NCBI RefSeq assembly: GCF_030028105.1
Contig: NC_092385.1
Location: forward strand, 44,131,433-44,195,432
Source of the DNA: Mobula birostris
Lineage: Eukaryota
Length of the DNA: 64,000 bases
Direction: 5' to 3'
Shown: piece by piece, positions 7,447 to 59,038 of the stretch
Numbering within the stretch: position 1 is the stretch's first letter
Layout of the letters: the number at the start of each line of letters is the position of its first letter
The notes under the pieces: model-generated
The model's database searches: none
What the model saw: the letters and a program-made list of their open reading frames with translations, nothing else
What the model was told of the DNA's origin: nothing
Made by a program: the position numbers and the translations under genes

Positions 7447-7572
7447 TCAACTCCAACTCATCTTTTTTTTCCAGTCCTGCTGAAGGGCCTCAGCCCGAAG
7501 CGTCAACTGTTTATTCTTTTCCATAGATGCTGCCTGGCCTGTTGAATTCCTCCGGCACTTTGTCTGTATTGT
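7447..7572 (+). mobile_element. Short Penelope-like pLTR 3' fragment
   Basis: HHR motif followed by the AGATGCTGCCTGGCCTG...TTCCTCC tail shared with the larger PLE copies in this window. Confidence 0.75.
7472..7509 (+). ncRNA. Degenerate minimal hammerhead ribozyme motif
   Basis: CAGTC-CTGCTGA-A-GGGC(CTCA)GCCC-GAAG-C-GTC-AACTG; core substitutions. Confidence 0.6.
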
Positions 7573-8405
7573 CATGGTGTCAAATTTTGTTTTACTGATA
7601 TGTTGCCTAAAACATCTCTGGTCAAAATTGTGCTTCACCTAGATCGTTCAACATTATTTAAGCTGTCTAAGTCAATGCAAAGGTCCATGTTGATTAATGT
7701 TTAGCCCGTACAGTATAATGAATGGTTCAACGTCTCTAATCCATTCTCAGCATCAGCGTATCGAGTTCTGAAAGGAGCTATTGTCTATTAAACTTCTTTT
7801 TGGCACTGCAGGTGGACAAAAAGGAAAGTGCATATTTTTAACTTGACCTACACTAATCCACAAATTCTAGTAGCACCATAGCATGGGTGTTGCAAATACA
7901 TGTGGGATATAAATGAGTAAGGAATTAGTATCAATCCTTATACTAAATTGATTCTAGGCTAGTGTTAAAGAAACAAGCCACATCATCCTATTTACAGAGT
8001 GCTATACATGAAGTTAAGAGGCTCTCTGCTCAAGGAGAAACAGGTTCTTCCTTTCTCTTTAGGTGCAGAGCAGCACTGAACAATAGCTGCACAAATCTAT
8101 TTGCAATGGAAGATAAGAGTATTCCCTTTATACATCTGAAGAGTACAATGCAATGAAGTGGATTGGATAGCTTGGCGTATATGTTGGAAATCCAATATAT
8201 TTCTGGTGCAGAACTGATATGGTGTCTGAAAGCAATCAATTGAACTGATTTGCATTCAGACATGTTCCATCCCAGATCAAGTTATTCTGTTTGAATGCAC
8301 AAGCACGTGCAACTAACATGACTTCATGGCTTCAGAAGTATACAAATCCACTTATTGACAAATATTCTTTCAGGAAAAACTCTGCTGGCTTGTGCGTGAT
8401 AAAAC

Positions 8406-8483
8406 ACAAGTCTGCTCTTTCAGACAACAAAATCACGCATTGCAACAAGTCTGCTCTTTCAGACAACAAAATCACGCATTGCA
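8406..8483. repeat. Perfect 39-bp tandem duplication
   Basis: ACAAGTCTGCTCTTTCAGACAACAAAATCACGCATTGCA twice. Confidence 0.95.
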
Positions 8484-10329
8484 ATTGTTTTTATTAATAC
8501 AAAACAAAATACATATACGTGAATAGTGAACTCAAGTCATTCTGTTAGTAGATATGAACATCACTGAGACTGTTCTTATATAAACACATCAAAATAGACC
8601 ATCATTTCCACAGTCCGAGTCGTAACTTGACAGTTCAGATCATTCTCCTTTGGGGAACATTCTTACCTTATTCCTTTAATAAATGTCATAAGTATACTGA
8701 GTGGCCCACTCTAGATTACTCAGTGGAGTCTTGCTCTCATGTATGGACAATCTAATTATGGTAGAAATAATTTACCTAGTGTACAGCAATCATATATTTA
8801 AGCACTGTTGTAATCGATTGGGCACCTTATCCACAGAGTGGGACATGCTGTTCTAATTGAAAGGCTCTTGTTTTGAGGAGCACGCCTGATCTGACAGACC
8901 AATTCAAAATCCCAAAACTTTCAACCCAGTGCTAATTGATTGACTGTTTATTCTCCAAACAGGACTTTCAATTTCCTGACTGCCAATCCTTTGACTCTAC
9001 CAACTTCTTACCAACAAACTGTTTATCACCACATTGTAACTCCCTATTCTAAAAGACCAAATTCTTTCTCAATCTCAGTCCAAATTGATGAAAATCTAAT
9101 CCCAAAACTGTGAATAGCAGCTCTAACTAACCTAGTCCCTAATCCCTGGACTGTAACTCTTAATTCGCAATGACTGAATCCTAATCCCTGAACTATTACT
9201 GATGTACTAAGTAAAGACAAACATTTACCCTAATTGGACCCCATATATATATAATTTAGAGGTGGTCACCCAGTCCTAACTGACTGGTTGCATATTCCAA
9301 ACTAAAGTACATCCCATGCATGTTTAGTATAGATAAACCTGAATCCTATCAGTCACAAAGAAACTATCTTCCAGTGAAACAAGATCTGTGTAAACTAAAG
9401 TGACATTAAGCAAGCTAAAACTGCGTGCCCTGCTATTAAAGTTGAGAGGTGATTAGATCAAGGAATTTTAAAGGATAGCTAGGAATACCAATAGAGAGAG
9501 CGAGAAAAACTATTTCTATTGTTTGTGGAGTTAGGGATTTAAAAACATAGACAAAAAAGCTAGGCTCTTCAGAAATGAAATAATAAACAGGCAAAACACA
9601 ATAGAAACTGAGCTTTCTCCTGTATGAACAGCTAAAGGAAGGTTAAAAGGCAGGCCATTTAAGCACTAAAACTTTATAATGTGAATCATGCAGCATGTGA
9701 ATGATGCTCTTTTTTGCAGTTCTGGCCTATTTATGTGATGTAGAACTGAAATACTGTCTGAAAAGAACCTATGAAAGGACTGAAAAATTGTTGAAGTAGA
9801 GAAATAATTAATTGATAAAAATGATAAAAATGTATTATCATTTTCATTAACCAAAGATTTTAGGGGAAAGATGACAAAGGACTGTTATATATCAGCCACA
9901 ATCTTGTTGAGTAGCTAAAGAAGCTAAAGATCCTGTTCCTATGTGCTAAGTAAATATCTCCTTGCACCATAATCCGTTTTTTGTCTACTGTATCTTTGAT
10001 GCACAACATAATAAATTGCCTGCAGCACTGGCCACAGTCCTTTCAAAGATACAACTCTTTCTTTTATTTGCCAGTTGGCAACAGAATCGTGAGAGACTTT
10101 TAGCTTGGGGAAATTTGCTTTTCTGGGTAATCTGGTAATCAAAACATGAAACATTTTGTGACAATAGGCATGTTAAAGCATGAATAATAATTTTGGGAGA
10201 ACATACCCTGGTAATGTTGACAAAGAAATATAAATACAAAGCAATTATCAAAATACTGCGACAGCAGGGATTTGGATGTCAATAAATAAGCAATCCAACT
10301 CAATTGTGAATGACAAGTTGATTAACCAA

Positions 10330-10725
10330 AATCAAATTTATCACTCTCTTACGTGACATGAAATACATTGTTTTGTGGAAGCCGTACAGTGCAAAGACAG
10401 AAAATTACTATAAATTACAAAATCAACCAGATTAAAAAAGGAATAATGAGGTGGTATTCATGGGATTATGGACCATTCAAAAATCTGATGACAGAAGGGA
10501 GGAAGCTGTTTCTAAATCAGTGAGTATATGTCTTCCGGCACATGTACCTCCTCCGTAATGGAAGTAACAAGAAGAGGGCGTGTCCCAGAATGTGAGTGTT
10601 TTTAATGATGGATGTCACCTTCTTGAGGCACTGCCTCTCGCAGATGTCCTCAATGGTGAGAAAGGTTGTGCCTGTTATGGTGTTTGTTGGTTGTGTCTAC
10701 AGTCCACTGCAGCCTCTTGCAGAGC
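10330..10725 (-). mobile_element. Rex1/Babar-like LINE 3' fragment
   Basis: Reverse complement resembles the C-terminal IIK..H.GHALF.LLP.RRY motif of the other Rex1-like copies, plus an AT-rich tail. Confidence 0.75.
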
Positions 10726-11199
10726 TTAAGAGTAGAGATGGAAATATATTCCTGTGCAATTGAAAACAGGAGAAGCTAAAAGCGTGTTCATAAAATCAGA
10801 TTCATCACTGAATCACCGTTCTCTTAAAAGTGTGTACCTAGCATAGAATCATACGCATATAAAATGAAAACAATACAAATATAATTAAAGGTAAAGGCTG
10901 CAGATCATTTCTTTTTCATTGGTTTCAGCTATAGAACGTAAATGTCAATTTTTCATTTGATCTTTTTCTCTTCACCCCATAGCATGTTGTATATTACTAA
11001 TTTGCCTTGAAATAACACAAAAATTTTACAGTTTTGTTGTTCACACGAGGCTTGAGAAAAATGTTTTCTGGGTCAGATTGCATCAGAGATCACTCCAAGA
11101 TAAACATCACCCTGGTATTCCCAAACAAAATCCATCTGAATGTAGGACATCATCTTTCATTAGGAAATCACTCCATTGGGAATGTTCTATGTGAATCCA

Positions 11200-11655
11200 C
11201 CCCCCCCCCCCTTAGCAACAGGGGCACTGAGGAGCTGATCAGTAGGCATATGTTGGAAAGGTTAAAAAATAACAGGGTTGTTGTCATGGGTGACTTCAAC
11301 TTCCCAAATATTGATTGGAATTTTTTTAGTGCAAGGGGATTAGATTGTGGGGCAGAATTTCTTAGATGTGTCCAGGAAGGATCTCTGACACAATATGTAG
11401 AGAGGCCAACCAGATGAGAGGCCATAGTGGATCTAGTACAAGACATGAACCTGGTCAGAAGACAGATGTCCCTGAGAATAAACATTTCAGAGATGGCCAC
11501 CACATCTCCTTGACCTTTACAATAGCCTAGGGCAGCGATTGGAGCAGACAGTATGGAAAAGCATTTGATTGGGGGAGAGCTAATTATGATAATTTTAGGC
11601 AGGAATTTAGGAGAATAAATTGGGAACAAATATTCTTGGAAAATGCATAGACTGG
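11200..11655 (+). mobile_element. CR1 endonuclease-domain fragment
   Basis: ORF 11034-11417 contains RVVVMGDFNFPNIDW...LTQYVERPTR. Confidence 0.85.
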
Positions 11656-11958
11656 AGATTGCTCTGTTGTCTCAACTCAGACGTTTTCTTGCACCATCAT
11701 TGCAGCCATGGAAGGTCTTTGAGGTTTGATAGCCTCCCTCCCCAGTTAAGAGCGGGGTGTTGATATGGAATTTCAAGTTCTATAAAGTCAATCCAACAGC
11801 AATCACATGGGTAAAATTTTGACCAATTTTGTCATTGTCTTGACAGATATCATTGCATTTTATGCACCTTCGAAGAGTGAAAGACAGATTCTGGGCAACG
11901 ATGATCTTATTATCCAAGCAGCATAACATCTTTAACTACAACAACTTCATCATACATA

Positions 11959-12289
11959 TGAGGGGCGATTGATAAGTTTGTGGCCTAAGGTAGAAGGAGA
12001 TGAGTTATACAGCTTTTGTTACATGCACGTGCAGTTCACGTCTTTGAGTGAAAATGCAGAAAGTTTGAAGTTAATAACTCATCTCCTTCTACCTTAGGCC
12101 ACAAACTTATCAATCACCCCTGCTGTGGACCACTCCTGGAGGTCCAAGACACCAACTTCTACAAAGAAGGGATCCGTATGCTCCATGACCACTGGACTAA
12201 GTGTGTAAATGTAGGAAAAATAAATGTGCCTAGGTTTTCTAAGATTGACTCCTTCTACCTTAGGCCACGAACTTATCAATCACCCCTCG
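11959..12289 (+). mobile_element. Mariner-derived MITE with an extra internal TIR copy
   Basis: TA TSDs at 11957-58 and 12290-91; about 40-bp TIRs (GAGGGG.GATTGATAAGTT.GTGGCCTAAGGTAGAAGGAG); remnant FYKEGIRMLHDHWTKCVNVG matches a mariner transposase C-terminus. Confidence 0.9.
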
Positions 12290-13269
12290 TAGCAATTTTA
12301 ACACAGCAAAATGCTGCAAGATATCCCACCAGGTATTGCATAAAAAAAATTGAGACATCAAGAAATATTAAAGGTGGATCAAAAGCAGGGTCAAAATGGT
12401 AATTGTGAAGAATGCCATTTAAAAACAAAGCCGGGGATGAAGAGATTGCTAAAGTTTCATGGCTTCCTATCTTATTGGTGTAGAGATCAAGAGGCCAGGT
12501 TGGGGTTATGAAGATTGTAGAACCATATGAAAGTTAGAGAGGAGCAAGGCCATTGAGATATTTGACAGTTAATACAAGAAAAAAAATAAACACTGCACTA
12601 TTGCTTAACTGAAGTTAATTTAGGTCAAGCAGACAGAGAGTTGAATGAAAGGATTTAAGATGTTATCATACTGGCAACAGTTAACTTTGTGAAAATTAAC
12701 AGGCAGATTGCACTGAGGTATTCCAGTATGTTCTTTTGGCATATAATGCATTGATATCATTGATCATCAACTAATTATCATGCATAGCCACTCTGGATAA
12801 TTATGTTATATAATCCACTTGGAATAAAGCAGCAACTGTAGCAGAGCTCTCTGCAATACCCCACACAGCAACACCACCCATGAACAGCTGCCCTTCATTG
12901 TCACTGGATCCATTGGGGAACATGGACAAATGTCATGATTTCTTAGGAAAGCTTGAATGAACAGTGTTCAACTGAAAAATTTTAGATGTATAATCACAGA
13001 AGGACTACTTCATAAAGAGAGTTACAAATTCACTCCCCAAGCTCAAGGAGAGTAACGTTGCTAAGGTGTTAAACGCTGTGGGAATGGAGCCAAATCATTT
13101 GGTAAGTTGATTTCTGTGAGGTCTGATTAATCAAGCTTCACCCAAACAAATCAATAAGTGGCTTGGAATATTTAATGATCTTTACTCTTACATATATTCT
13201 TTTTTCTATCAGAGGAGAGCTTAAAGTTCTATCAATTTACTGTATGGCTAGGAGCACTTTTTTGAATTG

Positions 13270-14300
13270 CTATTTCAAGATGTGAGTATTGTTGGCAAAG
13301 CCAACAGCTATTGCTCATTGTTAATTCCTTTGTGAAGGTGACAGTGAATCACCTTTTTCAGTTACGGCATTCCTTCAGGTAAAAGCATTCAGTGTTGAAA
13401 AATGAAGAAAGTTCCAGGATGTTGATTGATATACCCCTTGGAGGGGAAACTGTGGGCAGCATTCCCTTAGTCCTGCAGCTGTAGTGCTTCTCGATTGGGA
13501 TTGTTGATTTGGGAAATGTTGTTATAGAGTACTTTTGTGTGACTGCCATATATTTTGGCAATGTGGCCCACTTTTCCAGTGGTGAGGGAATAAACATGCA
13601 AGATGACAGATGAATGCCAATCAAGAGTGTTTCTTTGACCAAGATAATAAAGAGCATAGAGTCAGGAGCCCAAGAGAAATATAGCAGAGAAACAGGCTCT
13701 TTGGCCTAACGAGCCTACACTAGACATCAGAATCCTGTTTATATTAGCCCGACATTAATTCCTTTCTTTTATTCTTTCCTGCATCCTTTCTGATGCTCCC
13801 ATGTTGTACCATGCACAAGAGGCAACTTAAAGTGATTAATTAACTTACCGATTTGCACATCTTTGGCATGTGAGAGGAAACTCACACAGCTATGAGGAGA
13901 ATGTAAAGCCTCCACACAAATAGAACACGAGAGGTCAGGATTGAACTTGGGTCCCTCGCACTCAGAGGTAGCAGTTCCACCATCTGCACCATTGTGCTGT
14001 CCATCTTGAGTATTAATGGGACTGGCCTAATCAGTACAATGTGCCAAGTATTCAGTCACAATCCAGAGAATACCATTTACTGTAGGTAGAGCAAAGACTT
14101 GGGAGCGAACCACTTGACACAAAATAAGCAGTCCAGCTCTTGTAAACTTGTGATTTTTCTAACTAGTCAATACCACCCCCTGCCCCCACCACAAAGTGTT
14201 GATGATGTGGAACCTGGCTATGATAATGCTTCTGATTGCCAAGGGAAGGTAGTTACACTCCCTCTTGATAGAGATTGCCTGGCATTTCTAGCATGATTGT
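13270..14300 (-). mobile_element. Old, highly diverged LINE 3' region, interrupted by a SINE
   Basis: Recalled resemblance to an elasmobranch LINE 3' end (GATGTGAGTATTGTTGGCAAAGCCAAC...ATTGCTCATTG); weak. Confidence 0.4.
13655..14003 (-). mobile_element. V-SINE (HE1-like)
   Basis: Reverse complement shows a tRNA head, a V-domain-like segment and a CR1-like tail. Confidence 0.65.
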
Positions 14301-14329
14301 TCGCTGAAAATTATTCCCATATTCCTTAC

Positions 14330-14590
14330 AATGTAGGAGGTATTTGAGCACTTTGAGTCTACACTAACTCATATAGCAATCCCATTCTTCCACTAATTGT
14401 CCCATAAACCCTTTCACCCTACGTTCCCTTGCACAGGAGTAATTCTTAGTGGATGATTAACTGCCAAGTCACACATCTTTGGCCGGTACGAAGAACCCGT
14501 TGCACCCAGAGGGAATCCAAACAGGCATAAGAACTACATTACAACTCCACATAGACAGCACTTGGAGGTAAGGATTGAGTCATGGTCATC
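14330..14590 (-). mobile_element. V-SINE fragment, diverged
   Basis: Similar to 13800-14000. Confidence 0.5.
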
Positions 14591-15109
14591 CTTTCTCTTC
14601 CTACACATAGACAGAGACCTTTTTCATTTTCTGAGGAGTTGTGAATGCAATTGATTTTAACCAAACATTCTCAATTTCAACAAAATGAATGTGCAGATTG
14701 AAACTTTCATTTTAAATATCACCAGATATTCAATTATGAGTCTGGAGATTGTTGAAAACACAGTCTTTGAAAATTCTGACTTTGCAATGTTAGCAGACAC
14801 CTGTCCAAGGTCTATAGTATTGACTGCATGGACCCTGCTAATTTCAGTGGTACCTGTCAGGAAGGAAATTACCTCCAATGCCCTTTGATTTTCTCCAATA
14901 AATTTCTGAATTGGGGTGTGATGCTACTATATCCATCTTACACTGCCCTTCAACTTCACTGGACATACAAATGTAAAACATTCATAGTGAGGTGGGACTA
15001 TTATCATGGACTACTGTATATGGAGAGTGTATGATTCTCTGTGTTCACAATTCATCAGATTTAGGTATCGGTAACCCTAACTTTATCCTCAAGGATGGCT
15101 CTGACATTA

Positions 15110-15310: not shown

Positions 15311-15842
15311 GAAAAGGATGAGAGTGTTTGCATTCGAAAAGCAGTGATTTTTGTCACTAATGGTTGGCAATAAATAAGCAGTAAGACAATTCAGATCTGT
15401 TTTTCACACTGTGGTTTCAAGCATTCAGATTTGGAGATGCTAGAAATGGCATGGAATGAAAATAAAACAATTTCATAACTTCAACAAGTTAGGAACTACA
15501 ATAAATTTGAAGGAATTGACAATCAACTTGAATGTTAAAATGAAAATGAAGATTTGGAGGATGCAATCATCGAAAGGTTTGTATGAAGGTAGTCTATCAT
15601 CTGCACTAGTGCCTTTGCTGATTTTTCTCATTTACAATCAATCAAAAGAACACAGTGTACACTGGAGGAATTCCTCCATTGAAACTATTAGGAACTATTA
15701 CACAGTTTTACAGTACTGTAATATTACCAGTATTGCTCTCATTTGTGCTATATTTCATTCAGATACATAATTTGTTCAACCAACACAACTCAAAGTTGCT
15801 GGTGAATGCAGCAGGGCCAGGCAGCATCTTTAGGAAGAGGTA

Positions 15843-15880
15843 CAGTCGACGTTTTGGGTCAAGACCCTTCGTCAGGACTA
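15843..15880 (-). ncRNA. Minimal hammerhead ribozyme motif (G12 mutated)
   Basis: TAGTC-CTGACGA-A-GGGT(CTTG)ACCC-AAAA-C-GTC-GACTG. Confidence 0.7.
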
Positions 15881-17609
15881 ACTGAAAGAAGAGCTAGAAA
15901 GAGATTTGAAAGTGAGAGGGGGCGGGGGAGATCCAAAATGATAGGAGAAGACAGGAGGGGGAGGGATGAAGCCAAGAGCTGGACATTTGATTGGCAAAAG
16001 GGATACGAGAGGATCATGGGACAGGAGGCCCAGGAAAAAAGAAAAGGGGGAGGGGGGGAAAAGCCCAGAGGATGGGCAAGGGGTATAGTCAGAGGGATAG
16101 AGGGAGAAAAAGGAGAGAGAGAGAAAGAATGTGTGTATATAAATAATTAACAGATGGGGTACAGGGGGGGAGGTGGGGCATTAGCGGAAGTTTGAGAAGT
16201 CAATGTCCATGCCATCAGGTTGGAGGCTACCCAGACGGAATATAAGGTGTTGTTCCTCCAACCTGAGTGTGGCTTCATCTGTACAGTAGAGGAGGCCGTG
16301 GATAGACATATCAGAATGGGAATGGGATGTGGAATAAAAAATGTGTGACCACTGGGAGATCCTGCTTTCTCTGGCGGACAGAGCGTAGGTGTTCAGTCAA
16401 ATGATCTCCCAGTCTGCGTTGGGTCTCACCAATATATAGAAGACCACATCGGGAGCACCGGACGCAATCCATCAGCCCAGCTGACTCACAGGTGAAGTGT
16501 GGCCTCACCTGGAAGCCATGAACATTGATTTCTCAAACTTCTGCTAATCCTCCACCTCCCCCTCATACCAGGACGAGGGAGATGAAAAGGGGCTTCCCTT
16601 CCTTCACCATCAACTCTGCTCTCAAACGCATCTCCCCTATTTCACCACATCTGCTCTCACTCCATCCTCCCACATCCCCACTAGGAATAGGGTTCCCCTG
16701 GTCCTCACCTACCACCCCACCAGACTCCGGGTCCAACATTTTATTCTCCGTAACTTCCGCCACCTCCAACGGGATCCCACCCACTAAGCACATCTTTCCC
16801 TCCCACCCCTCTGCTTTCCGCAGGGATCACTCCCTACACGACTCCTTTGTCCTTCGTCCCCCCCCACCCCATCCCTCCTCACTGATCTCCCTCCTGGCAC
16901 TTATCCTTGTTAGCAGAACAAGTGCTACACATGTCCTTACACTTCCTCCCTTACCACCATTCAGGGCTCCAGACAGTCCTTCCAGGTGAGGCGACACTTC
17001 ACCTGTGAGTCGGCTGGTGTGATATACTGCGTCCAGTGCTCCCAATGTGGCCTTCTATATATATTGGCGAGACTCATCGCAGACTGGGAGATCGTTTTGC
17101 TGAAAACCTACGCTCTTTCCTAGAGAAAGCAGGATCTCCCAGTGGCCACACATTTTAATTCCACATCCCATTCCCATTCTGATATATTTATCCATGGAAT
17201 CCTCTACTGTAAAGATGAAGCCACACTCAGGTTGGAGGAACAACACCTTATATTCCCTCTGGGTAGCCTCCAACCTGATGGCATGAACATTGACTTCTCA
17301 AACTTCCACTAATGCCCCAACTCCCCCTCGTACCCCATCTGTTATTTATTTATAGACACACATTCTTTTTCTCTCTGTCCTTTTTCTCCCTCTGTCCCTC
17401 TTACTATACCCCTTGCCCAACCTCTGGGTTTCCTCCCCTTCCCCTTTTCCTTCTCCCTGGGCCTCCTGTCCCATGATCCTCTCATATCCCTTTTGCCAAT
17501 CAACTGTCCAGCTCTTGGCTCCATCCCTCCCCCTCCTGTCTTCTCCTATCATTTTGGATCTCCCCCTCCCCCTCCCACTTTCAAATCTCTTACTAGCTCT
17601 TCTGTCAGT

Positions 17610-17647
17610 TAGTCCTGACGAAGGGTCTTGGCCTGAAACTTCAACTG
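17610..17647 (+). ncRNA. Minimal hammerhead ribozyme motif (degenerate stems)
   Basis: TAGTC-CTGACGA-A-GGGT(CTTG)GCCT-GAAA-C-TTC-AACTG. Confidence 0.65.
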
Positions 17648-17874
17648 TATCTCTTCCTAGAGATGCTGCCTAGCCTGCTGTGTTCACCAGCAACTTTGAG
17701 TTGTGTTGCTTGAATTTCCAGCATCTGCAAAATTCCTCGTGATTACATAATTTGTTATCCAATTTGCCTTTTTTTTTTTAAATATTTCATGAATCTTCAG
17801 CTGATTGGGCAGACAGTTAATTGGTACAAAATGTACAGGTCCTGATGTGTCCCAATTAATCTGAATCACTGTAT

Positions 17875-20949: not shown

Positions 20950-21726
20950 ATGATTGGAACCATTACAGCATTTGATAGTGGCATTGAAAACTGAGAAACT
21001 TACATTGAAAGAGTGGAGTTATATTGTGAGGCTAACGGTGTTAATGATGAAAAGAAAGCCATCGTCTTACTCAGTATGGGAGCAAAAACATAGGGGCTGC
21101 TATGGAGCTTGTTAACCCCTGAAAAGCCAGCTGACAAAACGTTCAAGCAAATAGTAGACACTCTCCAACAGCATTTAAACCCCCAAACACTGTTCATTGC
21201 TGAAAGATTTAAATTTCACAAACTGAATCAGAGCAAAAATGAAAGCATTTCTAAATATTATGCTGAATTGCACAAATTATCAGAACATTGTCAATTTGGA
21301 GCTGGTCTATCGGACACATTGAGGGACAGGTTAGTGTGTGGCATGCACTATGAAACCACCCAGAAGAAGCTTCTGTGTGAAAGAGACCTTAAATTAGAGA
21401 AGGCGCTGAACATTGCAATATCAACAGAAGCAGCAGCATGTGGTGCTTCAGAGGTACAACAAAAATCTTTGGAATATGCTACAAATAAAATGTCACTGAA
21501 CAGAAATGAAGGAAAGAAATGTCACCATTGTGGGAACAGGTCACATGACCCTGATGACTGTTGGTTTAAAGACAAAGAATGCAGAAACTGTGGCAAACAG
21601 GGCCACATTGGCAGAGTATGCAAAGCTAGCAAACAGCAGGAAAAGGACAAAATACAGAGAAACAAGAAATCCCAGAAAGAAAAATGCAACAATGTACACA
21701 AAATGAAAGAAAGAAAGCATTTCTGA
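20950..21726 (+). pseudogene. gag: Gypsy gag with in-frame stops
   Basis: MIGTITAFD...YIERVE...LRDRLVCG; CHHCGNRSHDPDDC and CRNCGKQGHIGRVC. Confidence 0.9.
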
Positions 21727-21789
21727 TGAAAATGACTCCAATGAAAGTGAATTGTCTTGTCCGCAACTTCACAGCATGAAAGAGACAGA

Positions 21790-23050
21790 TGATCGAAGAG
21801 TAATATGGATCACTGCACAAGTGGCAGGCGCGAGGTTGAAAATGGAGTTGGACACAGGCTCAGCTTTAACAGTGATCTCTATACATGACTACAAATGACT
21901 GTTTCCTCACTTACCTCTGAAACGAACTGAAGTACTGCTAAAGACTTACACAGGACAGAAAGTGCGTCCCAAAGGCAAAAATAAAGTGACAGTGACCTAC
22001 GGAGACAAAACACAGCAACTGAACCTCTATGTACTGAGAAATGGAGGACCATCATTGCTGGGACGTGAATCGCTCAGGAAAATCCAGCTGGATTGGCACA
22101 CCATCAAGGCACTAGATGTGTCAACAAAGGAGGGCAGCAAGGCTACATCTGAGAGACTGTCACAAATACTTGCTGACTCTGAGGAAGTGTTTATGAAAAG
22201 AATAAGAGCACTTCAGGGCATGAAGGCAAGGATTGAGATTGAGGAAAATGCATGTCCAAAATTTCACAAAGCCAGACCAGTGCCATATGCAATCCGTCCA
22301 ACAGTAGAGGCAGAGCTGAAAAATCTGGAGCAGACTGGGGTCCTATCAAAGGTGGGCCACGCCTATTGTTCCAGTGATGAAGAAAACCTCCAGCACAAAA
22401 CCTGGAAAATCAAGCAAGGTGCGCATATGTGGTGACTTTAAAGTGACTGTTAACCCAGTTCTCTGCACAGTACAGTATCCTCTACCTCATATTGAGGACA
22501 TCTTTGCTTCCCTGTCAGGAGCGGAACATTTCACAAAAATTGATTTGACCCAGGCTTATCTTCAAATGGAAATTGATGAAGCATCCAAGAAAAACCTGAC
22601 AATAAATACACACAAAGGACTTTACCAGTACAACAGATTGGTGTTTGGGATAGCATCAGCTCCTGCAATCTGGCAGAGGGCAATGGATCAGGTCCTGCAG
22701 GGGATTCCAGGGACTCAGTGTTACCTGGATATCATCATTGTCACCGGCAAAGATGACAACGAACATCTTTCTAACCTTGAACAAGTGCTCACCAGGTTAT
22801 GAGAATATGGGCTCAGAGCTAATTGACAGAAATGTGAGTTTTTCCAAAGGAAATCTCATACTGTGGACATGTGATCAACAAGGATGGCTTACACATGTCT
22901 CGACAAGACAGAAGCGATGCTTAAGGCACCACCACCTGAAAATGTGTCTCAGCTGAGAGCCATCTCAGACTAGTGAACTATTACTGCAAGCTCTTGCCTT
23001 ACCTATCCACAGTCCTACACCTACTTAATGCACTATTACAGACAGGGACA
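21790..23050 (+). pseudogene. pol: Gypsy pol remnant (protease + RT)
   Basis: DTGS protease motif near 21850; RT ORF 22374-22802 has YLDI in place of YLDD; frameshifts. Confidence 0.9.
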
Positions 23051-35519: not shown

Positions 35520-36320
35520 ATAGAGTCATAGAATGCTACACCATAAAAGCAGACCCTTTGGCCCATCTAGTCCATGCTGATCTATTAAACTGCCTCGTCC
35601 CATTGACCTGCACATGGACCAGCTCTTCATACCCCTCCCATCCATGTATCTATTTAAATTTCCTTTAAATGTTGAAATCGAACCCACATCCACCACTTCC
35701 ACTGGCAACTCATTCCACACTCTGAATGAAGAAATTCCCACTCATGTCCCCCTTCAACATTTCACCTTTCACTCTTTACCAATGACCTCTAGTTCTAGTA
35801 TCTCCCAACCCCAGAAAGAAAACACAGACATGAGAAAATCTGCAGATACTGGAAATCCAAAGCACACATGCAAAATAGCAGAGGAATTCAGCAGCATTTT
35901 GTGTATGCTGCCTCAAAGGAAAAAGCAAGCGTGCATTTACCCTATCTGTACCCCCTCATAAATTTGTATACCTCTAACAAATCTCTCATCATTCTTCTAT
36001 GCGCGAGGGCAGAGGTTGCCAACCTTTTTTATGCCATGGAGCTGTACCATTAAACGAGGGGTTGGTGGATCCCCGATTGGGAACCATGCTCTAGGGAATA
36101 AAGTTCTAATCTGTTGAAGCTTTGCCTATAACTCGTGTCCTCAAGTCCTGACAACATCCTTGTAAATTTTCTCTACAGTTTTTCATTACTATTGACATCT
36201 TTTCTATAGGTAGGTGACCAAAAATGCACACAACACTCTAAATTAGGCCGCACCACATCTTATACAATTTCATTATAACATCCTTACTTCTGTACTCAAT
36301 ACTTTGATTTATGAAGAACA
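35520..36320 (-). mobile_element. CR1 3' fragment with small nested insertions
   Basis: RVWNELPVEVVDVGSISTFK motif; CR1 tail; PLE-tail remnant at about 35815-35910. Confidence 0.85.
36010..36088. mobile_element. About 80-bp hAT-type MITE
   Basis: Imperfect TIRs CAGAGGTTGCCAACC / GATTGGGAACCATG; 8-bp TSD-like flanks CGCGAGGG / CTCTAGGG (6/8). Confidence 0.65.
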
Positions 36321-39296: not shown

Positions 39297-39522
39297 GCTA
39301 GGGCAACCTCATGCTTTCTTTTAGCCCTCCTGATTTCCTTCCTAAGAGTTCTCTTGCATTTCTTATACTCTTCACATAACTTATTTGCTCCTTCTTGCTG
39401 TGCACCTCCTTCTTCTCCTTAATCGGGTCTCAATAAACCAAGGTTCTATAAACCTGTTATCCTTGCCTTTTATTCTGACAGAAACAGACAAACCCTGTGC
39501 CTGCAAAATTTCACTTTTGAAG

Positions 39523-40032
39523 TAAACGCAAAATACTCTGTAGATGCTGGGGTCACCTCCTCTACTGCCATGATGAGGCTGAACTCAGGTTGGAGGAGCA
39601 ACACCTCATATACCGTCTAGGTAGTCTCCGGCCCCTTGGTATGAACATAGAATTCTCCAACTTCCGGTAATTCCCTCCCTCTTCCTTCCCTTATCCCTAT
39701 TTCACTCTGCTCCCTCCCCCAGCTGCCTACCACCTTCCTCATGGTTCCGCATTCTTCTACTACCCATTGTGTTTTCCCCTATTCCTTCTTCACCTTTCCT
39801 GCCTATCACCTCCCTGCTTCCCCTCCCCCACCCCTTTATCTCTCCCCTTACTGGTTTTTCACCTGGAACCAATCAGCCTTCTCCTTCCCAACTTCCCCCC
39901 CACCTTCTTTATAGGACCTCTGCCCCTTCCCTCTTCAGTCCTGACAAAGGGTTCCAGCCCAAAACGTTGACTGATCGTTTCCACGGATGCTGTCCGACCT
40001 GCTGAGTTCCTCCAGTGTGTTGTGAGTGTTGC
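39523..40032 (+). mobile_element. PLE pLTR insertion with its terminal about 33 bp inverted at the left end
   Basis: 13-bp TSD TTCACTTTTGAAG at 39510-39522 and 40033-40045; EN C-terminus (RLEEQHLIYRLGSL...GMNIEFSNFR) followed by the pLTR. Confidence 0.88.
39936..39973 (+). ncRNA. Degenerate minimal hammerhead ribozyme motif
   Basis: CAGTC-CTGACAA-A-GGGT(TCCA)GCCC-AAAA-C-GTT-GACTG; three CpG-type changes relative to 48607-48644. Confidence 0.65.
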
Positions 40033-40579
40033 TTCACTTTTGAAGGCCTCCCACTTACCAAATATACCTTTGCCAGAAAACAACCTATTCCAATCCACAC
40101 CTGCCAGATCTTTTATGATACCATCAAAATTGGCCTTTCTCCAATTTAGAATCTCAACCCAAGAACCAGACTGACCCTTCTCCATATTTATTTTGAAACT
40201 AATGTCATTATGATCAATACATGCAAAGTGTTGTCCTTCATGGATTTCTGTCACCTCCCGTCTCGTTCCATAATAAGAGATCTAGTATATTACTCTCTGT
40301 AGTTGGGACCACTATGTACTGATTAAGAACACTTTCCTGAACACATTTGTCAAACTCTATCTCATTGAGCCCTTTTCTGTATGGGAAATGTGGTAAGTTA
40401 AAATCACTTACTATTACAGTCTTATGTTCTTGCAACAGTCTATGATCTCTCTACAAATTTGCTCCTCTAAATCCCGCTGGCTGTTGAGTTGTCTATAAGA
40501 CACAGTGCTGGGCCATTGGTTAATGGGGGCAGCCAATTTCTTTTCAGCATTCAAAGATGGATCAATCCCTCTGGGATTT

Positions 40580-44998: not shown

Positions 44999-45051
44999 GT
45001 TCCTAATGGAAGACTTCATTCAGAGTAAGCTGCCATGCTTTTGATCTACCT

Positions 45052-48410: not shown

Positions 48411-48869
48411 CAAAACACATACAAAATGACGCAGGAACTCAGTAAACAGTCTGTTTACTCTTTTACACAGATGATACCTGGCCTGCTGAGTTCCTCTAGT
48501 ATTTTGTGTGTGTTAACACAAAATAATCTGCAAATTCTGGGATCAAAGCAACACTCACAATACGCTGGAGGAACTCAGCAGGTCGGGCAGCATCCGTGGA
48601 AATGATGAGTCGACGTTTCGGGCTGGAACCCTTCGTCAGGACTGTAGCAGGAAGGGGCAGAGGCCCTATAAAGAAGATGGGGGTAGGGTGGGAAGGAGAA
48701 GGCTGGTAGGTTCCAGGTGAAAATCCAGTAAGGGGAAAGACAAAGGGGTGGGGGAGGGGAAGCAGGGAGGTGATAGGCAGGAAAGGTGAAGAAGGAATAG
48801 GGGAAAACACAATGGGTAGTAGAAGGAGTTGTTGCTTGGATTTCCAGCATCCGCAGGTTTTCTTTTGTG
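48411..48869. mobile_element. Mini PLE palindrome (48411-48514, 48828-48869) with a nested PLE pLTR (48515-48827, minus)
   Basis: Nested piece closely matches the reverse complement of about 39748-40034; outer piece has inverted AGGAACTCAG / CTGAGTTCCT arms. Confidence 0.8.
48607..48644 (-). ncRNA. Minimal type I hammerhead ribozyme, intact core
   Basis: CAGTC-CTGACGA-A-GGGT(TCCA)GCCC-GAAA-C-GTC^GACTC: stem I AGTC/GACT, 4-bp stem II, palindromic ACGT stem III, GUC site. Confidence 0.8.
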
Positions 48870-51479: not shown

Positions 51480-51820
51480 CAAGTCTTGGGAGGCCATTTG
51501 CCCTATTGAGTATATGTCAACTCCAGACATTCCTATCAATTACATTACTCATTTATTTCCCAGCAATCTTTTCTTTCACATGCCCATCAATACTCACTGA
51601 ATCTCCCACTCCCACCGATGTTAGGAGCAACTTACTGTAGCTAATTAACATACCAGTAACAACAATGGAATGTGAGGGGAAAGAATGGTGCAAAGTGGAT
51701 GCCTATGTGGTCACTGGGAAAATGTGTCAACTTCAAATGGACAGTATCCGAGGTCAGAATTGAACTTGTGTCCCTGCAGCTGTGAGGCAGCAGCAATAAC
51801 TGCTGTGTAACCACGCCCCA
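51480..51820 (-). mobile_element. V-SINE, diverged
   Basis: Similar to 13800-14000 (GAGGTCAGAATTGAACTTG.GTCCCTG..GCTGTGAGGCAGCAG). Confidence 0.6.
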
Positions 51821-53649
51821 TTTGTTACCCTTTTAACTCAATTAACTTTATTATAATATTGAATATAGTCTGCCTGCAATTTTGGTTCATAGTCATTTTG
51901 ATGAAAAATAACTATCCTGGATACATCCAAAAAATTCATTGCCATAGAAAATCTAGCTCATTGTCAGAAAGGCAATCTATATGCAAATCAAACTTCTCCA
52001 TTAAAATCAATCTGGCTTTTCTACATATTAGCCTACTTTTGGCATTTATACATTATCTCTTTATGGCAGCTATCAAGAGACCTTTAGACAAATCCCAGTA
52101 TCATCTCAAATCCTTTCCTAATTCTTAATTCCACTCATTTAGTTCCCTCTGCCCGCTTTTTTTTTTAAACCATTTTTAATTTTTCTCATCATTCAAAGCT
52201 GCTCTTCCACTTCCTTCATTTTTTTTATATATCTTTCCCATACATTTTAGCATGTGCTATGTTTAATCCCGTCCTGCCCTCCAGCTATATCTTAGTAATG
52301 ACACATATGTTACTGCTGGCTGAGTTTTCCCAGGTTTACCAAGGAACAAGCCCCTTCAAGGAAAGACAAAATCAACTGGTGATGAAAAGCTGCAAAATTT
52401 ACAACTTTCTTATTAGTATTTTATATATTACTATACAAAGGGTCTCTTCTCTCCCCTGCATCTTTTACCATTCTATGATCCAACACTAAATTCTTCAAAG
52501 TCAAAGATAATGTACATTTATTCTCAAAGTACAATACAATACCTTAAGATTCATTTTCTTGAAGGTATTTACAGGAAAGAAAATAAATAGAGTACAATAG
52601 AATTTATTAAAATCAAGATATAAAATAAAGATTGACAAACAAACGATATGCAAAAGACAAACTGTGTAAATAATAAATAAAGAGACAAATCAGATCAGTG
52701 TTAGAGTACTTTACAAGTGAAAAATAACGATCGTAGCTGCATAAAATTAAGATAATCTCCCAATTTGTTGTTGTGTATACCTATTTTTAGCAACAGTATT
52801 ATGGTCAAGTTCTTGGATTTCATCAAAATTGGCTCTAGGATATTATGTTATCTGACAGTAGATGAGGTAATTATAGGGATTGGAATTGTAATAACAAAGT
52901 AGTCTCAATCCCCATAGATGAATAAATTATTCAAATTAGATCATAACACAATAGCAATCTTCCAGTCAAAACACATGATTTTGGCACTAGGTGTTTGAAA
53001 CCGTCATTATATCCCACATCTGAAATATCTTGTGAAGCACACAGTGTCATGGCAACAAATCTTTTGCTCACAGAAGGTGGAAGAAGGGTAGAATAATTTT
53101 TTTTAAAAATTGCTGAAAAAAAACTAAAAACAACCCTGAGTATATAATTTGGATTTCACTATTTGGGTATGTATAGGAGGTAAAATTTAGCAGGAAAAGC
53201 AACAGCAGAACAAAACTTGATCGACCTTAAATAAGAGTCAGCATAAAATGGACAAAAGCATCCCTTCCTTATTACTTCTAAATTTTGACTAGCTCTTTTA
53301 TGGATTGGAATTCAAGAAATAAAAACAAGCTGCCTTCTCAATTTTGCCATTAGCTATCTCTCAGTTCAGCAGCAGCATTCCTTCCATCAAAAGGGCTGTT
53401 TGGTAACGTAAGCACAATATTATCATCCATTTTCAATTCCTCTGATAATGAAGCTTTCTATGCCTGTAAGCAATAAGATCAGGGCTTATCAGTCGCAACG
53501 CCAGGTAATGACCAACTCAGTGAAAGATTCTAACATGCTCATTGTAACATTTAATGGCATTATTTTTACTTGGTCTTTTGGCCATTATTCAGGAGGTAAC
53601 TACTGACCAAGTTCAAGCATAACAAGTATACAGAGAAGATATAGGAGAT

Positions 53650-53925
53650 ATTAGAAGGAGGTACAGAGGAGATGTCCGGGATAAGTTGTTTTTTTTTTAA
53701 AAACGCAGAGAGTGGTGAGTGCGTGAAATGGGCTGCCGGCGATGGTGGTAGAGGCAGATATGATAGAGTCTTTTAAGAGACTCCTGGACAGGTACATGGA
53801 ACTCAGAAAAACAGGGCTATGGGTAACCCAAGGTAACTTCTAAGGTAAGGACATGTTCGGCACAGCTTTGTGGGCCAAAGGGCCTGTATTGTGCTGTAGG
53901 TTTTCTATGTTTCTATGTTCTATGT
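53650..53925 (+). mobile_element. CR1 3' tail
   Basis: Matches the reverse complement of about 61000-61260; TTCTATGT repeat tail. Confidence 0.85.
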
Positions 53926-54319
53926 TATACAACTATTCAGTTCTGGTTCCGTGTATTCCCCAGTAATATACGACAATTGCAGGACCTCTTTAAATTTTGC
54001 GACAGATGCTGTGAGCTGGACTTTGTGCCTCTTACACTGGGGCCTCTAATTGTTCAGGGAATGAGTGTCGAGGAGCAGCATGGTCACAAATCTAGGACTC
54101 TGAAGGGTCTCTGTTGAGCATATTCAAATAATTGCATGTGATATCAAACCAATTACAGTGCTTCAGGAGCCGAGTATTCCATCTGGTGTGGACTACCACC
54201 TGCCATTCGAGATTCCTTTTCATTAGAGAAATCTCTCTTTAAAGAAATAAGCAATATGATCTGTGCTGTTCTCTATTTTTCTACATAGATATTGCTACAG
54301 TAGCATTTAAGATGATTAG

Positions 54320-55620
54320 CAGCACTCAGGACAAAGCCTTCACATCCAGCACAACATTCTTTATGATTTCTAACAGCTACGATGAGACCCCACTGCCAAG
54401 CACATCCTCCCCACCCCTCTTCCACATTTTGCAGGGATCACTCTCTCATTGACTCCCTGGTCTGTTTAACAATCCCCACCCTGTGGCCTCCATCCAACAC
54501 TCTTCCCTGTAACCGCAAGAGATGTAACACCTGTTCCCAGACCTCCTCTCTCATCACCAAGCAAGGCTCTTAACAGCTCTTCCAACCGTGGCGGTCTTTC
54601 TCATGCAAAACCCTTGGAATGACTTAATGCATCCAGTTTTCCTCATGTGTCTCCTATACATAAGTGAAACAAAATGCAAACTGGACAACCGCTCTGCCAA
54701 GCACCTTCACTCCATCCGCTGTCTGGATCTCCCATTTACCAACCATTTTAATTCCCACACTAGCATGTCTGTCTTTGGCCTTTGTCACTGCCAGGTTGAG
54801 GCTAAATGCAAACTAGAGGAATAGCATCTCATATTCCACCTGGGTAGACTACAACCTGATGGCATTAACACTGATTTCTTCAACTTCCAGTAACTGCTCC
54901 TCTACTATCTCTGATCCATCTGGTCCCCTTCACCATGTCTCCTTGCCCTCCACCGCCTGAGCAACTGCACATCACCCACATATTCTTCCCACTGTTTCCC
55001 CTCCCCACTGCTCTCCTCTGCTCTCCATACCTCCCTCCCAGTATTCTATACATCACCTTCCCTTCCTATCAGGTTGAATATCTGTAGTACTTTGTTACTT
55101 CCATCTATCTCCTTCCAGTTCCTGGTGTCATTCTTGCTCCACCCCTTCTCTCCACCTTTTCTGGCCATCTTCCCTTCATTCTTCAGTGCAGATGAAGGAT
55201 CTTGATTTAAAATGACAATTTCCCTCCATAGAGCTGCCTTACTTGTTGAACTCCTCCAGCATTCTGTGTGCTGCACCAGGTTATAGCAGCACAATTCCCC
55301 ATCAGCTTTTCCCAATTACTCCATCTTCTTGGTATCTATTCCATGACTGAGACTTTCCACACCAGTGACTCTGAAGTACCTCTCTTTCTCCTGAACCATG
55401 GCTTTCCATCTACCAAACTTTACCATGTCTCATCTACAGTATCTTTCACACCTCTGCTCTCATTTCATCTCCTCTCAGCCAGAGTAAGGATATTGCTCCC
55501 TAGGACACACTCTTTGTCCCATCAGCCTCTGCATTCAATAGCAAATTCTTCACAATTTCTGCCACTTTCACTGAGGTTCCACCACCAAAAACCTTCCTTT
55601 TCAGCATTTCCAAAGAGATG
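54320..55620 (+). mobile_element. Older PLE: EN region + pLTR, followed by a second upstream-ORF segment
   Basis: FCRDHSLIDSLV, PCNRKRCNTC and LYISETKCKL..R.AKHL motifs; eroded HHR trace at about 55184-55221. Confidence 0.75.
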
Positions 55621-55844
55621 TTTACTGTTCAGTCCATAGGATCAACCAGAGCTTCCAGCTATCTGTTATTTCCAAGTTGACCTCCCGTCTGTGTCTTCCT
55701 GTATTATTTTAAAAAAGGTCTAGAGTGCGCTTGAGGAATAGCATATCGACTTCTAATAATATTGAGCATGTTCCAGTCTTCAAGACTCAGTACTGAATGC
55801 AGCCTTTTCAAGTAATTTACCCTGCATTCCGCAAGACTGCAAGT

Positions 55845-56490
55845 CCATAAGACATAGGAGTAGAATTAGGCCATTCGGCCCATCGAGTTTGCTCTGACAT
55901 TTTATTATGGCTGATCCGTTTCCCTCTCAACCCCATTCTACTGCCTTCTCCTCATAACATCCTTACTAATCAAGAATCTATCAACCTTAGTCTTAAATAC
56001 ACCCGATGACCTAGTCTCCACAGTTGCCTGTGGCAACAAATTCCACCGATTCGCCATCCTGTGGTGAAGGAAATTCCTCCTCTTCTCTGTTCTAAATAGA
56101 TGTCCCTCTATTCTGAGGCTATGCCCTCTGGTCCTACACATTCCCACCATAGGAAACATCCCCTCCACATCCACTCTATCTTGGCCTTCCAATATTCGAT
56201 AGGTTTCTCTTCCCCCCCCCCCCCCATTCTTCTAAATTCCAGTGAGTGCAGGCCCAGAGCCATCAATCACTTCTCATTCCTGGGATCATCCTTGTGATCC
56301 ACTTCCGAACCCTGTCAAATGTCAGCACATCCTTTCTTAAAAAGCAGCCCAAAACTGCTCACAATACTCCAAGTGAGGCATCACTAGTGCCTAATAAAGC
56401 CTCAGCATTACATACTTGCTTTTATATCCTAGTTCTCTCAAAAATAAATGCTTACATTGCCTTCCTCATTACTGACTCAACCCGCAAATT
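55845..56490 (-). mobile_element. CR1 3' fragment
   Basis: DRVDVEGMFPMVG.RTRGHSLRI...RRNF motif; CR1 tail. Confidence 0.9.
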
Positions 56491-57853
56491 ATTCCCAGCA
56501 TATTCATTATTTTCTTAAAATTATATGTGGCCACCAGCAGCTTCACAAGCTGCTTGTACATAAAGTGTTCACCTCTGCCAGTCCGAGATGTATTTCAAGG
56601 TGATTGATGCCAATTGAAAGCTGTAACTAACAGCATCCCTAATTCAGGAAAAAAATACACAATGTTCTCAAGTTATCCAAGACTAAACATAACATCTCTA
56701 AATTCAGCAAAACTATGAGTTAATGCAATTGATAATCTCCCCTATTTGTTCATATATCTTAATTCATCGGGCATGTATTCTTCAGAACACTGAAAGCTCC
56801 TAATTCAATCCAATTATAAATTGACTGCAGGAAAAGAACTTTAATAAAACCATATAGCATTCACAGAACAAGACAGGGAAGCTACTGTTTTTATTCAATA
56901 AACATGAGATTGGCTTCACCATAAAGATGGTCCTAACATATTAAGGAGGAACGTTTAGCATCTTGGCCACCAGTAATCAAAGAAAATTATTACAGTAGCG
57001 TTACAAAGTTTTGAACCTTGTAGAATTTTCTCTATTTCTGTATAAATATGGCCTAAAATGTGATCAGCTCTTCATACAAGTCCTAAAACTAGATAAAGAG
57101 AACCCAATTAAATAAATAACATGAAAACATTATATTTGTTCATTTATTTATTGAGAAACATTATCCAATATGTGAAAAAGTATGTGAACCTTTGCTTTCA
57201 GTAACTGGTGTGACCCCCTTGTACAGCAATAACTTCAACCAAATATTTCAAGTAACTGTTTTCCTCATCGGCTTGGAGGAATTTTAGGCCATTCCCCCTT
57301 ACAAAACTGCTTCAACTCTGGGCTGTTGACCTGCTAGGTTCAGGTCCTCCCACAACATTTCTATAGAACTAAGGTCAGGACTTTGACTCGGGCATTCCAA
57401 AACACAATTTTTCTTCTTTTTAAACTATTGTCATTGATTTACTCTTGACTTTCGGATCATTGTCTTGTTGTATTATCCAACTTCTATTAACCTTCAGGTG
57501 ACGGACTGCTACCCTGTCAATCTTCTGGAAAATGTATTGATAAGATTTTGAATTCATTGTTCCCTCAATGATTGCAAGCTGTCCAGGCCCTAAGGCAGCA
57601 ATGCAGTCCCAAACCATGATGCTTCACAGTTGAGATGAGGTTTTGATGTTGGTGTGCAGGGCCCTTTTTCCTCCAAATATAACCATGTATATTTCTGCCA
57701 AAATGTTCAATTTTGTCTCATCTGTCCACAGAACATTGTCCCAGAAGTGTTGCAGAGCATCCAGGTGGCCTTTGGCAAACATGAGATTTGCGGCACACAC
57801 ATCAAAGTTGCTGGTGAACGCAGCAGGCCAGGCAGCATCTCTAGGAAGAGGTA

Positions 57854-57891
57854 CAGTCGATGTTTCAGGCAGAGACCCTTCGTCAGGACTA
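57854..57891 (-). ncRNA. Minimal hammerhead ribozyme motif (AUC site, stem III palindrome broken)
   Basis: TAGTC-CTGACGA-A-GGGT(CTCT)GCCT-GAAA-C-ATC-GACTG. Confidence 0.68.
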
Positions 57892-59000
57892 ACTGAAGAA
57901 GGAGCTTGTAAGAGATTTAAAAGTGGGAGGGGGATGGGGAGATCCAAAATGATAGGAGAAGACAGGAGGGGGAAGGATGGAGCCAAGAGTTGGACAGGTG
58001 ATTGGCAAAAGGGATATGAGAGGATCGTGGGACAGGAGGCCCAGGGAGAAGGAAAAGCAGGAGGAGGGGAAAGCCCAGAGGATGGGCAAGGGGTATAGTC
58101 AGAGGGACAGAGGGAGAAAAAGGAGAGTGAGAGAAAGAATGTGTGTATATAAATAACGGATGGGGTACGAGGGGGAGGTGGGGCATTAGCAGAAGTTAGA
58201 GAAGTCAATGTTCATGCCATCAGGTTGGAGGCTACCCAGACGGAATATTAATATGTGTGGCCACTGGGAGATCCTGCTTTCTCTGGCGGACAGAGCGTAG
58301 GTGTTCAGCAAAACAATCTCCCAGTCTGCGTCGGGTCTCGCCAGTATATAGAAGGCCACATCGTGAACACCGGACGCAGTATATCACCCCAGCTGACTCA
58401 CAAGTGAAGTGTCGCCTCACCTGGAAGGACTGTCTGGGGCCCTGAATGGTGGTAAGGGAGGAAGTGTAAGGGCATGTATAGCACTTGTTCCACTTACAAG
58501 GATAAGTACACCTACGCTCTGTCCACCAGAGAAAGCAGGATGTCCCAGTGGCCACACATTTTAATTCCACATCCCATTCCCAGTCTGACATGTCTATCCT
58601 CAGCCTCCTCTGCTGTAAAGATGAAGCCACACTCAGGTTGGAGGAACAACACCTTATATTCCGTCTGGGTAGCCTCCAACCTGATGGCATAAACATTGAC
58701 TTCTGTAACTTCCGCTAATGCCCCACTTCCCCCTCGTACCCCATCGTTATTTATATACACACATTCTTTCTCCCTCTCTCCTTTTTCTCCCTCTGACTAT
58801 ACCCCTTGCCCATCCTCAGGGCTTTTTCCCCCCCTTCCCCCTTTTCCTTCTCCCTGGGCCTCCTGTCCCATGATCCTCTCATATCCCCTTTACCAATCAC
58901 CTGTCCAGTTCATGGCTCCATCCCTCCCCCTCCTGTCTTCTCCTATCATTTTGGATCTCCCCCTCCCCCTTTTAAATCTCTTACTAGCTCTTTCTTCAGT

Positions 59001-59038
59001 TAGTCCTGACGAAGGGTCTCGGTCTGAAACGTCGACTG
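59001..59038 (+). ncRNA. Minimal hammerhead ribozyme motif (core intact, weakened stem II)
   Basis: TAGTC-CTGACGA-A-GGGT(CTCG)GTCT-GAAA-C-GTC-GACTG. Confidence 0.72.

Follow-up and report, generated by a model that had tools for sequence, protein, structure and literature searches.

Minimal hammerhead motifs in the ends of decayed Penelope-like elements of Mobula birostris

The minimal hammerhead ribozymes described from Penelope-like elements (PLEs) by Cervera and de la Pena (2014, PMC4209133) are motifs of type I that have a CUGANGA box followed by one extra base, a G10.1-C11.1 pair, a GAAA-C/G-U-H segment, palindromic positions 15.2-16.2, no loop 3 and a helix I of 4-5 bp. They lie behind U-rich sequence and are mostly single motifs in truncated elements, with some opposite-strand pairs. 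The same features are found in eight motifs of a 64,000-base stretch of the genome of the ray Mobula birostris (contig NC_092385.1, positions 44,131,433 to 44,195,432; hereafter, the window). Their architecture is nearly identical to that of the Acropora digitifera Neptune motif in the supplement of the same paper, which has the same 4-bp stem II and 4-nt loop. By contrast, the vertebrate motifs in that work mostly have a longer stem II, and the window motifs differ in that the 5' strand of helix I opens with an invariant YAG. Neither the 56 motifs in Figure S3 of that supplement nor its Table S1 include a cartilaginous fish, and literature searches returned no report on PLE hammerheads or introns in elasmobranchs; a 2026 preprint (10.64898/2026.07.22.740005) counts retrozymes in one chondrichthyan.

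The elements that carry the window motifs share with the endonuclease-positive PLEs Neptune and Nematis (Craig et al. 2021, PMC8557442) a C-terminal GIY-YIG endonuclease with CCHH, a linker of the CX2-5CxxC type and a pseudo-long terminal repeat (pLTR), as well as inverted 5'-truncated arms, a 30-40-bp tail at one end and target-site duplications; unlike the elements of that study, none in the window is full-length or tandem. In the element PAc of Anolis carolinensis (Frangieh et al. 2024, PMC11167929), as in the window, the hammerhead lies at the end of the pLTR and two end points define the tail. PAc belongs to the Poseidon clade and its open reading frame (ORF) starts inside the ribozyme, whereas the core has ACG in window subfamilies A and B. 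The possibility that a coding frame begins at the ribozyme was considered for the window and rejected: the spacer behind the motif measures 12, 14 or 16 nt, lengths that differ modulo 3, so no shared frame runs through the ribozymes, and the frame opened by the ATG downstream of the motif runs into a stop within 16 codons. It is highly probable that the window motifs lie in end-pieces of decayed PLEs and represent minimal type I hammerheads with which the active ancestor likely cut its RNA after GUC.

Census and architecture of the motifs

A 38-nt degenerate pattern with up to 3 mismatches, run over the whole window, matched seven places (7472+, 15843-, 17610+, 39936+, 48607-, 57854- and 59001+) and nothing in 100 dinucleotide shuffles; these are exactly the seven starts listed in a first-pass annotation of this DNA. 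The eroded trace that it had noted near 55184 was recovered at 55184-55220 (+, E 2e-6) by a profile of the aligned copies, of which this copy is itself a part, so that the recovery is not independent. No ninth hammerhead was detected in the window by this profile. The family of eight members that had been proposed is thus present as eight motifs, although these derive from six insertions, because the pairs 15843/17610 and 57854/59001 each lie within one inverted composite and share one target-site duplication.

The motif begins with YAGUC, the 5' strand of helix I, followed by the CUGACGA box and one additional A; then come stem II, of 4 bp and capped by a 4-nt loop, the stretch GAAA-C-GUC and finally the 3' strand of helix I. 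Helix I has 5 bp, and there is no stem III beyond the ACGU palindrome. The CUGANGA, GAAA and UH boxes stand in type I order, in the majority sequence and in four of the eight individual copies, in agreement with the earlier assignment to minimal type I hammerheads, a class rightly called known, since it has been in print since 2014. For helix I and for stem II, the latter with G10.1-C11.1 preceded by an unpaired base, pairing is seen in 93% of 72 cells, against 12-44% in slid controls. Stem II pair 4 is U.G in five copies, U-A in two (15843 and 55184) and C-G in one (7472), and the loops read CTCA, CTTG, TCCA, CTCG or CTCT. The first-pass annotation had listed the three forms of pair 4 and all of these loops except CTCT. 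Most differences among the loops (CTCG changed to CTTG or CTCA) are consistent with CpG decay.

Individual copies are preserved to different degrees. CTGANGA and GAAA are both matched in only four of the eight (17610, 48607, 57854 and 59001), the palindrome is kept in four and broken in four, and the full core and the palindrome occur together only at 48607 and 59001. The best preserved is the subfamily B motif at 48607..48644 (-), which has a full core, the ACGU palindrome, a 4-bp helix I and a predicted cut after 48612; it is predicted to fold into both helices (z -2.0), whereas the subfamily A motif at 59001..59038 (+) is not. The latter has a full core and palindrome, a predicted cut after 59033, a stem II weakened to three G.U pairs and a long tail. 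Two other subfamily A motifs keep the catalytic boxes and have a broken palindrome: 17610..17647 (+), with a change at G16.2, G1.1A and a long tail to 17743, and 57854..57891 (-), with a CpG-type G16.2A and a short 3' end. The remaining subfamily A motif, 15843..15880 (-), carries a CpG-type G12A, a private U-A at stem II pair 4 and a short 3' end. G8A, G12A and C17U, all of CpG type, are found in the subfamily B motif at 39936..39973 (+), A6C and A15.1G in the type C motif at 7472..7509 (+), and U4A, G12A and U16.1A in the eroded subfamily D motif at 55184-55221 (+).

The first-pass annotation placed the motif at a constant position of the pLTR. This holds where the ORF end is present, with the motif 266-298 nt behind the stop codon at 17610, 39936, 55184 and 59001 and with 15843 and 57854 aligned in register with copies that carry the ORF end, but not for 7472 and 48607, whose insertions are cut off upstream, within the spacer. 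The downstream end showed no conserved fold (z -3.4 to +0.6, with differing structures). Copies on the same strand are spaced at 3.8-32.8 kb and never lie closer than 3,817 nt, so there is no dimer-ready tandem in the window.

Anatomy and affiliation of the insertions

The composite subfamily A insertion at 15777..17743 combines an inverted arm (15777-16515, -) with a direct arm (16516-17743, +) and lies between the two copies of a perfect 13-bp target-site duplication (15764-15776 and 17744-17756). The direct arm contains a broken ORF remnant (16581..17312, +) that encodes the end of the reverse transcriptase (RT) thumb, a CX4CxxC linker and the GIY-YIG endonuclease with CCHH, up to a stop codon at 17310-17312. 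Before the RT thumb, this arm opens with an extra copy, of about 70 nt, of the ORF end and pLTR start (16516-16580), which is a template switch at the inversion junction. The second composite of subfamily A, at 57796..59126, comprises two inverted pieces (57796-58248 and 58247-58507, -) and a direct arm (58508-59126, +) between 15-bp duplications with one mismatch (57781-57795 and 59127-59141). In the subfamily B insertion at 39523..40032 (+), a perfect 13-bp duplication (39510-39522 and 40033-40045) encloses an inverted tail (39523-39550), the endonuclease end, a stop codon (39668-39670), a spacer of 82% pyrimidine and the motif. The insertion with the 48607 motif is cut off at 48825 and has an inverted tail at 48830-48868, so that both subfamily B copies bear an extra tail inverted at the 5' end. 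An older remnant of subfamily D at 54335..55300 (+) retains the linker, the endonuclease to its stop codon at 54891-54893, the spacer and the eroded motif, and the 7472 motif belongs to a short 5'-truncated insertion at about 7437-7572. Fragments of the downstream end that lack a ribozyme were found at about 35825..35894 (-, with tail) and, as two pieces head to head, at 48414..48518.

At three of the six insertions the target-site duplications score 12-13, and a score of 12 was reached by only one of 299 random pairs of places. Truncation at the 5' end is common to the insertions, and an inverted arm is frequent. A tail of 30-40 nt is optional and occurs at one end only, and target-site duplications measure 13-15 bp; an inverted 5'-truncated arm with a tail at one end is the published anatomy of PLEs (PMC8557442, PMC3846280). 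The two arms of each inverted pair stop at different points, about 65 nt past the predicted cut in one and about 100 nt past it in the other, with the long tail at one end only. Within the window, a full ORF enclosed by two pLTRs in direct orientation, as in a tandem or partial tandem, was not found, nor was any full-length element.

GIY-YIG sequence is joined to six of the eight motifs. The frames upstream are broken and cover the end of the RT thumb, the CX4CxxC linker (present in subfamilies A and D) and the endonuclease with CCHH, and the window holds no more of the ORF. With an 88-residue piece as query, 14 longer proteins were retrieved; those of Mobula hypostoma and Hypanus sabinus match best (77-92% identity), ahead of zebra shark and whale shark. 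These longer relatives carry the YIDD motif of RT, and four of five that were scanned gave a weak Pfam GIY-YIG match, with E 5e-4 to 2e-3 and so short of the curated cut-off; of 129 fetched relatives that have the endonuclease motif, 111 also contain a linker of the CX4CxxC type. Ray proteins with both YIDD and GIY-YIG align to the remnants in the window at 60-89%. The pLTR of a PLE and the elasmobranch setting proposed in the first-pass annotation are borne out by the endonuclease remnants and linker that precede the motifs and by the ray origin of the best matches. According to published comparisons, the CX2-5CxxC linker marks Neptune and Nematis and is absent from Penelope and Poseidon (PMC8557442), and Neptune and Poseidon are the clades reported for vertebrates (2026 preprint). 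Of the clades that bear the linker, Neptune is the one reported from vertebrates, so the elements likely belong to it.

The family is abundant: when four of 24 public runs, all in the form of contigs, were mapped to 58400-59200 (subfamily A) at 80% likeness, 7,046 to 65,131 contigs per run matched these 801 bases. In all four runs the T at 59023 is a C in 95-99.8% of the depth; therefore, its G.U pair is private to the 59001 copy.

The pieces at 7472 and 48607 are without coding sequence, and retrozymes have been reported in one chondrichthyan (2026 preprint), both of which would fit a non-autonomous retrozyme or short interspersed nuclear element (SINE) family in place of truncated PLE ends. 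We consider this very unlikely, given the endonuclease sequence joined to most motifs, the ragged 5' ends, the 92% identity of 48607 to the ORF-bearing 39936 copy, and the wide same-strand spacing with no tandem of motif units in the window.

Conservation, decay and proposed catalysis

Across subfamilies A, B and D, identity amounts to 71-78% over the final 110 nt of the ORF, 50-76% over the motif and 60-68% over the 60 nt that follow (z 3.5-7.0), whereas the spacer (265-297 nt) is no more alike than shuffled sequence (z -1.1 to 1.5). A fourth type, represented by 7472, has flanks of its own. These comparisons indicate that the master elements kept the motif, because it is conserved between subfamilies while the spacer is not, and they uphold the earlier claim that at least three subfamilies retained it. 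The majority sequence keeps every catalytic base across subfamilies, including four CpG-prone sites.

By analogy with the minimal hammerheads of PMC4209133, a review and the Anolis element (PMC11167929), in the ancestral transcript two motifs would pair through ACGU, or the protein of the element would assist, and the RNA would be cut after GUC. The 3' ends at about 65 and about 100 nt beyond the cut site may be the two start sites of reverse transcription, as in other PLEs; in the Anolis element two end points match two such sites (PMC11167929). An alternative is that the motif is derived from a hammerhead but non-catalytic here, and that it was kept with the next 60 nt as a binding or start site for RT. 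The 60 nt behind it are indeed conserved almost like the motif, and the account of the Anolis element reports that ribozyme mutants left insertion in vitro unaffected and that no RNA sequencing ends fell at the cut site (PMC11167929). Nevertheless, all the catalytic bases, CpG-prone ones included, are retained in the majority sequence; the same core is kept, among the matches listed below, in families with entirely different helices; and the Anolis ribozyme cut in the presence of its protein and obeyed C3/G8 rescue (PMC11167929). We therefore regard a non-catalytic motif as unlikely and favour a ribozyme that was active in the ancestor.

The same architecture is found in other animals. When metagenome contigs were searched with a pattern that fixed the core but not the stem and loop, at least 121 loci were found (about 410 estimated); the 127 matches included one on a viral contig, which has no helix I and is likely due to chance. 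After removal of this match and of one without flanks, 125 were grouped, coarsely, into 20 clusters defined by their flanks. Among the matches listed, stem II pair 3 forms in 18 of 20 families (shuffled mean 7.8) and pair 4 in 15 (8.9), and helix I pair 1 in all 20 (8.7) and pair 2 in 17 (7.5), with slid controls at 7-10 of 20. None of the matches listed has the downstream sequence of the ray elements, and several nearly equal the Acropora Neptune motif of the 2014 supplement. The architecture thus appears to be a real, covarying and published class of RNA, with the covariation seen in families from outside the elasmobranchs. Five of the metagenome loci (L015, L049, L082, L098 and L114) carry two minimal hammerheads on opposite strands, and in L015 and L049 these lie head to head only about 25 nt apart, an inverted pLTR pattern in other animals.

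Several observations weigh against a ribozyme used by an ancestral Neptune element. Published minimal hammerheads cut poorly even as dimers (PMC4209133), eight of nine Xenopus retrozyme dimers did not cut (2026 preprint), and the behaviour of the Anolis mutants speaks against a strong role of the ribozyme. No hammerhead was matched by Rfam in the window at E up to 5, no target-site duplication above chance was found at 7472, 48607 and 55184 (scores 4-6), and the elements are not separated from Nematis by a tree. The outside families are not elasmobranch and their core was fixed by the search pattern; among the matches listed, helix I pairs 4 and 5 are at chance (8/20 and 7/20; shuffled 8.2 and 7.0), a PLE protein match was found at 25 of 122 loci, and an ORF end lies 14-570 nt upstream in 16 of 127 matches. 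Finally, the stem II covariation that the first-pass annotation had seen within the window is not supported, as 95 of 500 shuffles reach its score. At pair 4 there is no two-sided change relative to the commonest pair, U.G, and the only two-sided change lies in the eroded copy; the U-A at 15843 is a private change of that arm, and the partner arm of the same insertion, 17610, has U.G.

True covariation would have implied that some copies are working ribozymes retained by the host and selected in place. All stem II cells still pair, none of 36 non-CpG core positions has changed in subfamily A, the 48607 copy folds, and ray gene models incorporate pieces of the element. However, stem II pairing persists because a C-to-T change gives G.U, and zero changes in 36 are expected about a quarter of the time at a rate of 4%. 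A core base or the palindrome is lost in six of the eight copies, at rates that match the flanks; no host exon was found among 88 long frames scanned, a scan that short exons would escape; and same-strand copies are several kilobases apart. In the four copies of subfamily A (91-94% pairwise identity), CpG sites are changed at 10/40 in the motif vs 9/32 upstream (Fisher p 0.79) and non-CpG positions at 2/112 in the motif vs 53/1390 in the flanks (p 0.43), a test of little power with four copies. Of 18 changes in the seven better copies (loop and first base excluded), 11 are CpG-type transitions, including G12A at 15843 and 39936 and G8A at 39936. Judged from these counts, the subfamily A motifs now decay like their flanks with no sign of selection on the copies, and selection by the host is extremely improbable. 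The window copies are predicted to be inert relics of the ancestral ribozyme, with 48607 as the best predicted candidate for residual activity.

A candidate spacer intron, a palindrome and neighbouring repeats

In Penelope of Drosophila virilis, an intron of the 5' untranslated region ends at the helix I 5' strand (PMC4209133, PMC2377424), so that different ribozymes are present before and after splicing (Schostak et al. 2008, PMC2377424); the YAG of the window motifs stands in the same place. That intron measures 75 nt and was proven by reverse-transcription PCR, whereas the window candidates measure 272-297 nt and start on the stop codon. A rather doubtful possibility is that the pLTR spacer of ray Neptune elements is a spliceosomal intron that gates the ribozyme and whose donor also serves host genes, combined with fold-back of cut RNA at 48441-48459. 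The donor would be the GT on the ORF stop codon in subfamilies B and D and the acceptor the YAG inside helix I; splicing would swap the 5' strand of the ribozyme and so gate cleavage, which has been demonstrated to date for Drosophila Penelope alone, and the same donor would let insertions act as first exons of host genes. On the basis of sequence and ray gene models, a candidate GT-AG intron of 272 nt can be placed at 39667..39938 (+) in subfamily B and another at 54890-55186 (+) in subfamily D, each with its donor on the stop codon and its acceptor inside helix I.

GTAAYT overlies the stop codon in subfamilies B and D and not in A. In all eight motifs the 5' strand of helix I contains an AG preceded by a run of pyrimidines; the run alone means little because the spacers are 76-82% pyrimidine throughout. 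Three NCBI models from two ray genera (P0006, P0166 and P0168; accessions XP_059827355, XP_059827357 and XP_072889514) leave the frame of the element exactly at the stop-codon GT. Two Hypanus isoforms have different tails after FSNFR, and in a Hemitrygon VKORC1L1 isoform the element frame continues in frame with WGRGFG, where solved VKOR-like proteins read RWGRGFG. The host intron at this junction would be phase 2, as in human VKORC1, which fits a CG/GT donor. Among ten fetched proteins that contain the ORF end, three leave at the GT, four stop and three read into the spacer or its shark equivalent; no spliced junction from ORF end to ribozyme was found among two plus two proteins returned. 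In the run mapping, none of the best 15 of 208 joints has the form GT..AG, and no accumulation of ends was reported; this is uninformative on splicing or cleavage because the subfamily A reference is without a GT donor. Among the matches listed from outside families, YAG lies near helix I in only three of 20, and is thus not general. Parts of the motif or tail appear in translated form in Mobula gene models for STARD3NL and CoA synthase isoforms (P0164 and P0165). A read-through protein of the zebra shark (P0010) ends in a peptide that fits the translated motif, a hint that sharks share the motif at the same place.

The two head-to-head fragments at 48414..48518 meet in a near-perfect palindrome of 19 nt (48441-48459) centred on the predicted cleavage position, which could reflect fold-back copying of cut RNA or a chance inversion. 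It is a single case, and PLE inversions often carry palindromes (PMC3846280). In the other families none of 157 places begins at the cut (nearest -14, -7, +6, +6 and +7), a weak test, as the loci were chosen for an intact motif.

Other repeats were also identified in the window. A broken LTR-retrotransposon remnant at 21094-22953, presumably of the Ty3/Gypsy type, has gag, zinc knuckle and RT frames (Pfam), and remnants of long interspersed nuclear elements with RT or endonuclease Pfam matches lie at 3304-5125, 11016-11414 and 61809-62099. Further repeat families of 50-180 nt recur across the window. A tRNA-like stretch at 62983-63051, which scored 25.6 of 29 bits in Rfam (below the cut-off) and was not called by ARAGORN, is likely the head of a SINE.

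For the study of old vertebrate repeats these copies carry a caution, as seeming covariation among them can stem from CpG decay and private mutation. If the fold-back at 48441-48459 is true, the genome would preserve a trace of cleavage in vivo; the intron, if real, would extend the overlap of splicing and ribozyme seen in Drosophila Penelope to a vertebrate Neptune and explain the chimeric ray transcripts. The window adds rays to the animals whose PLEs carry minimal hammerheads, and, the family being so abundant, the role of the ribozyme in PLE replication could be tested on a large scale in a ray assembly.

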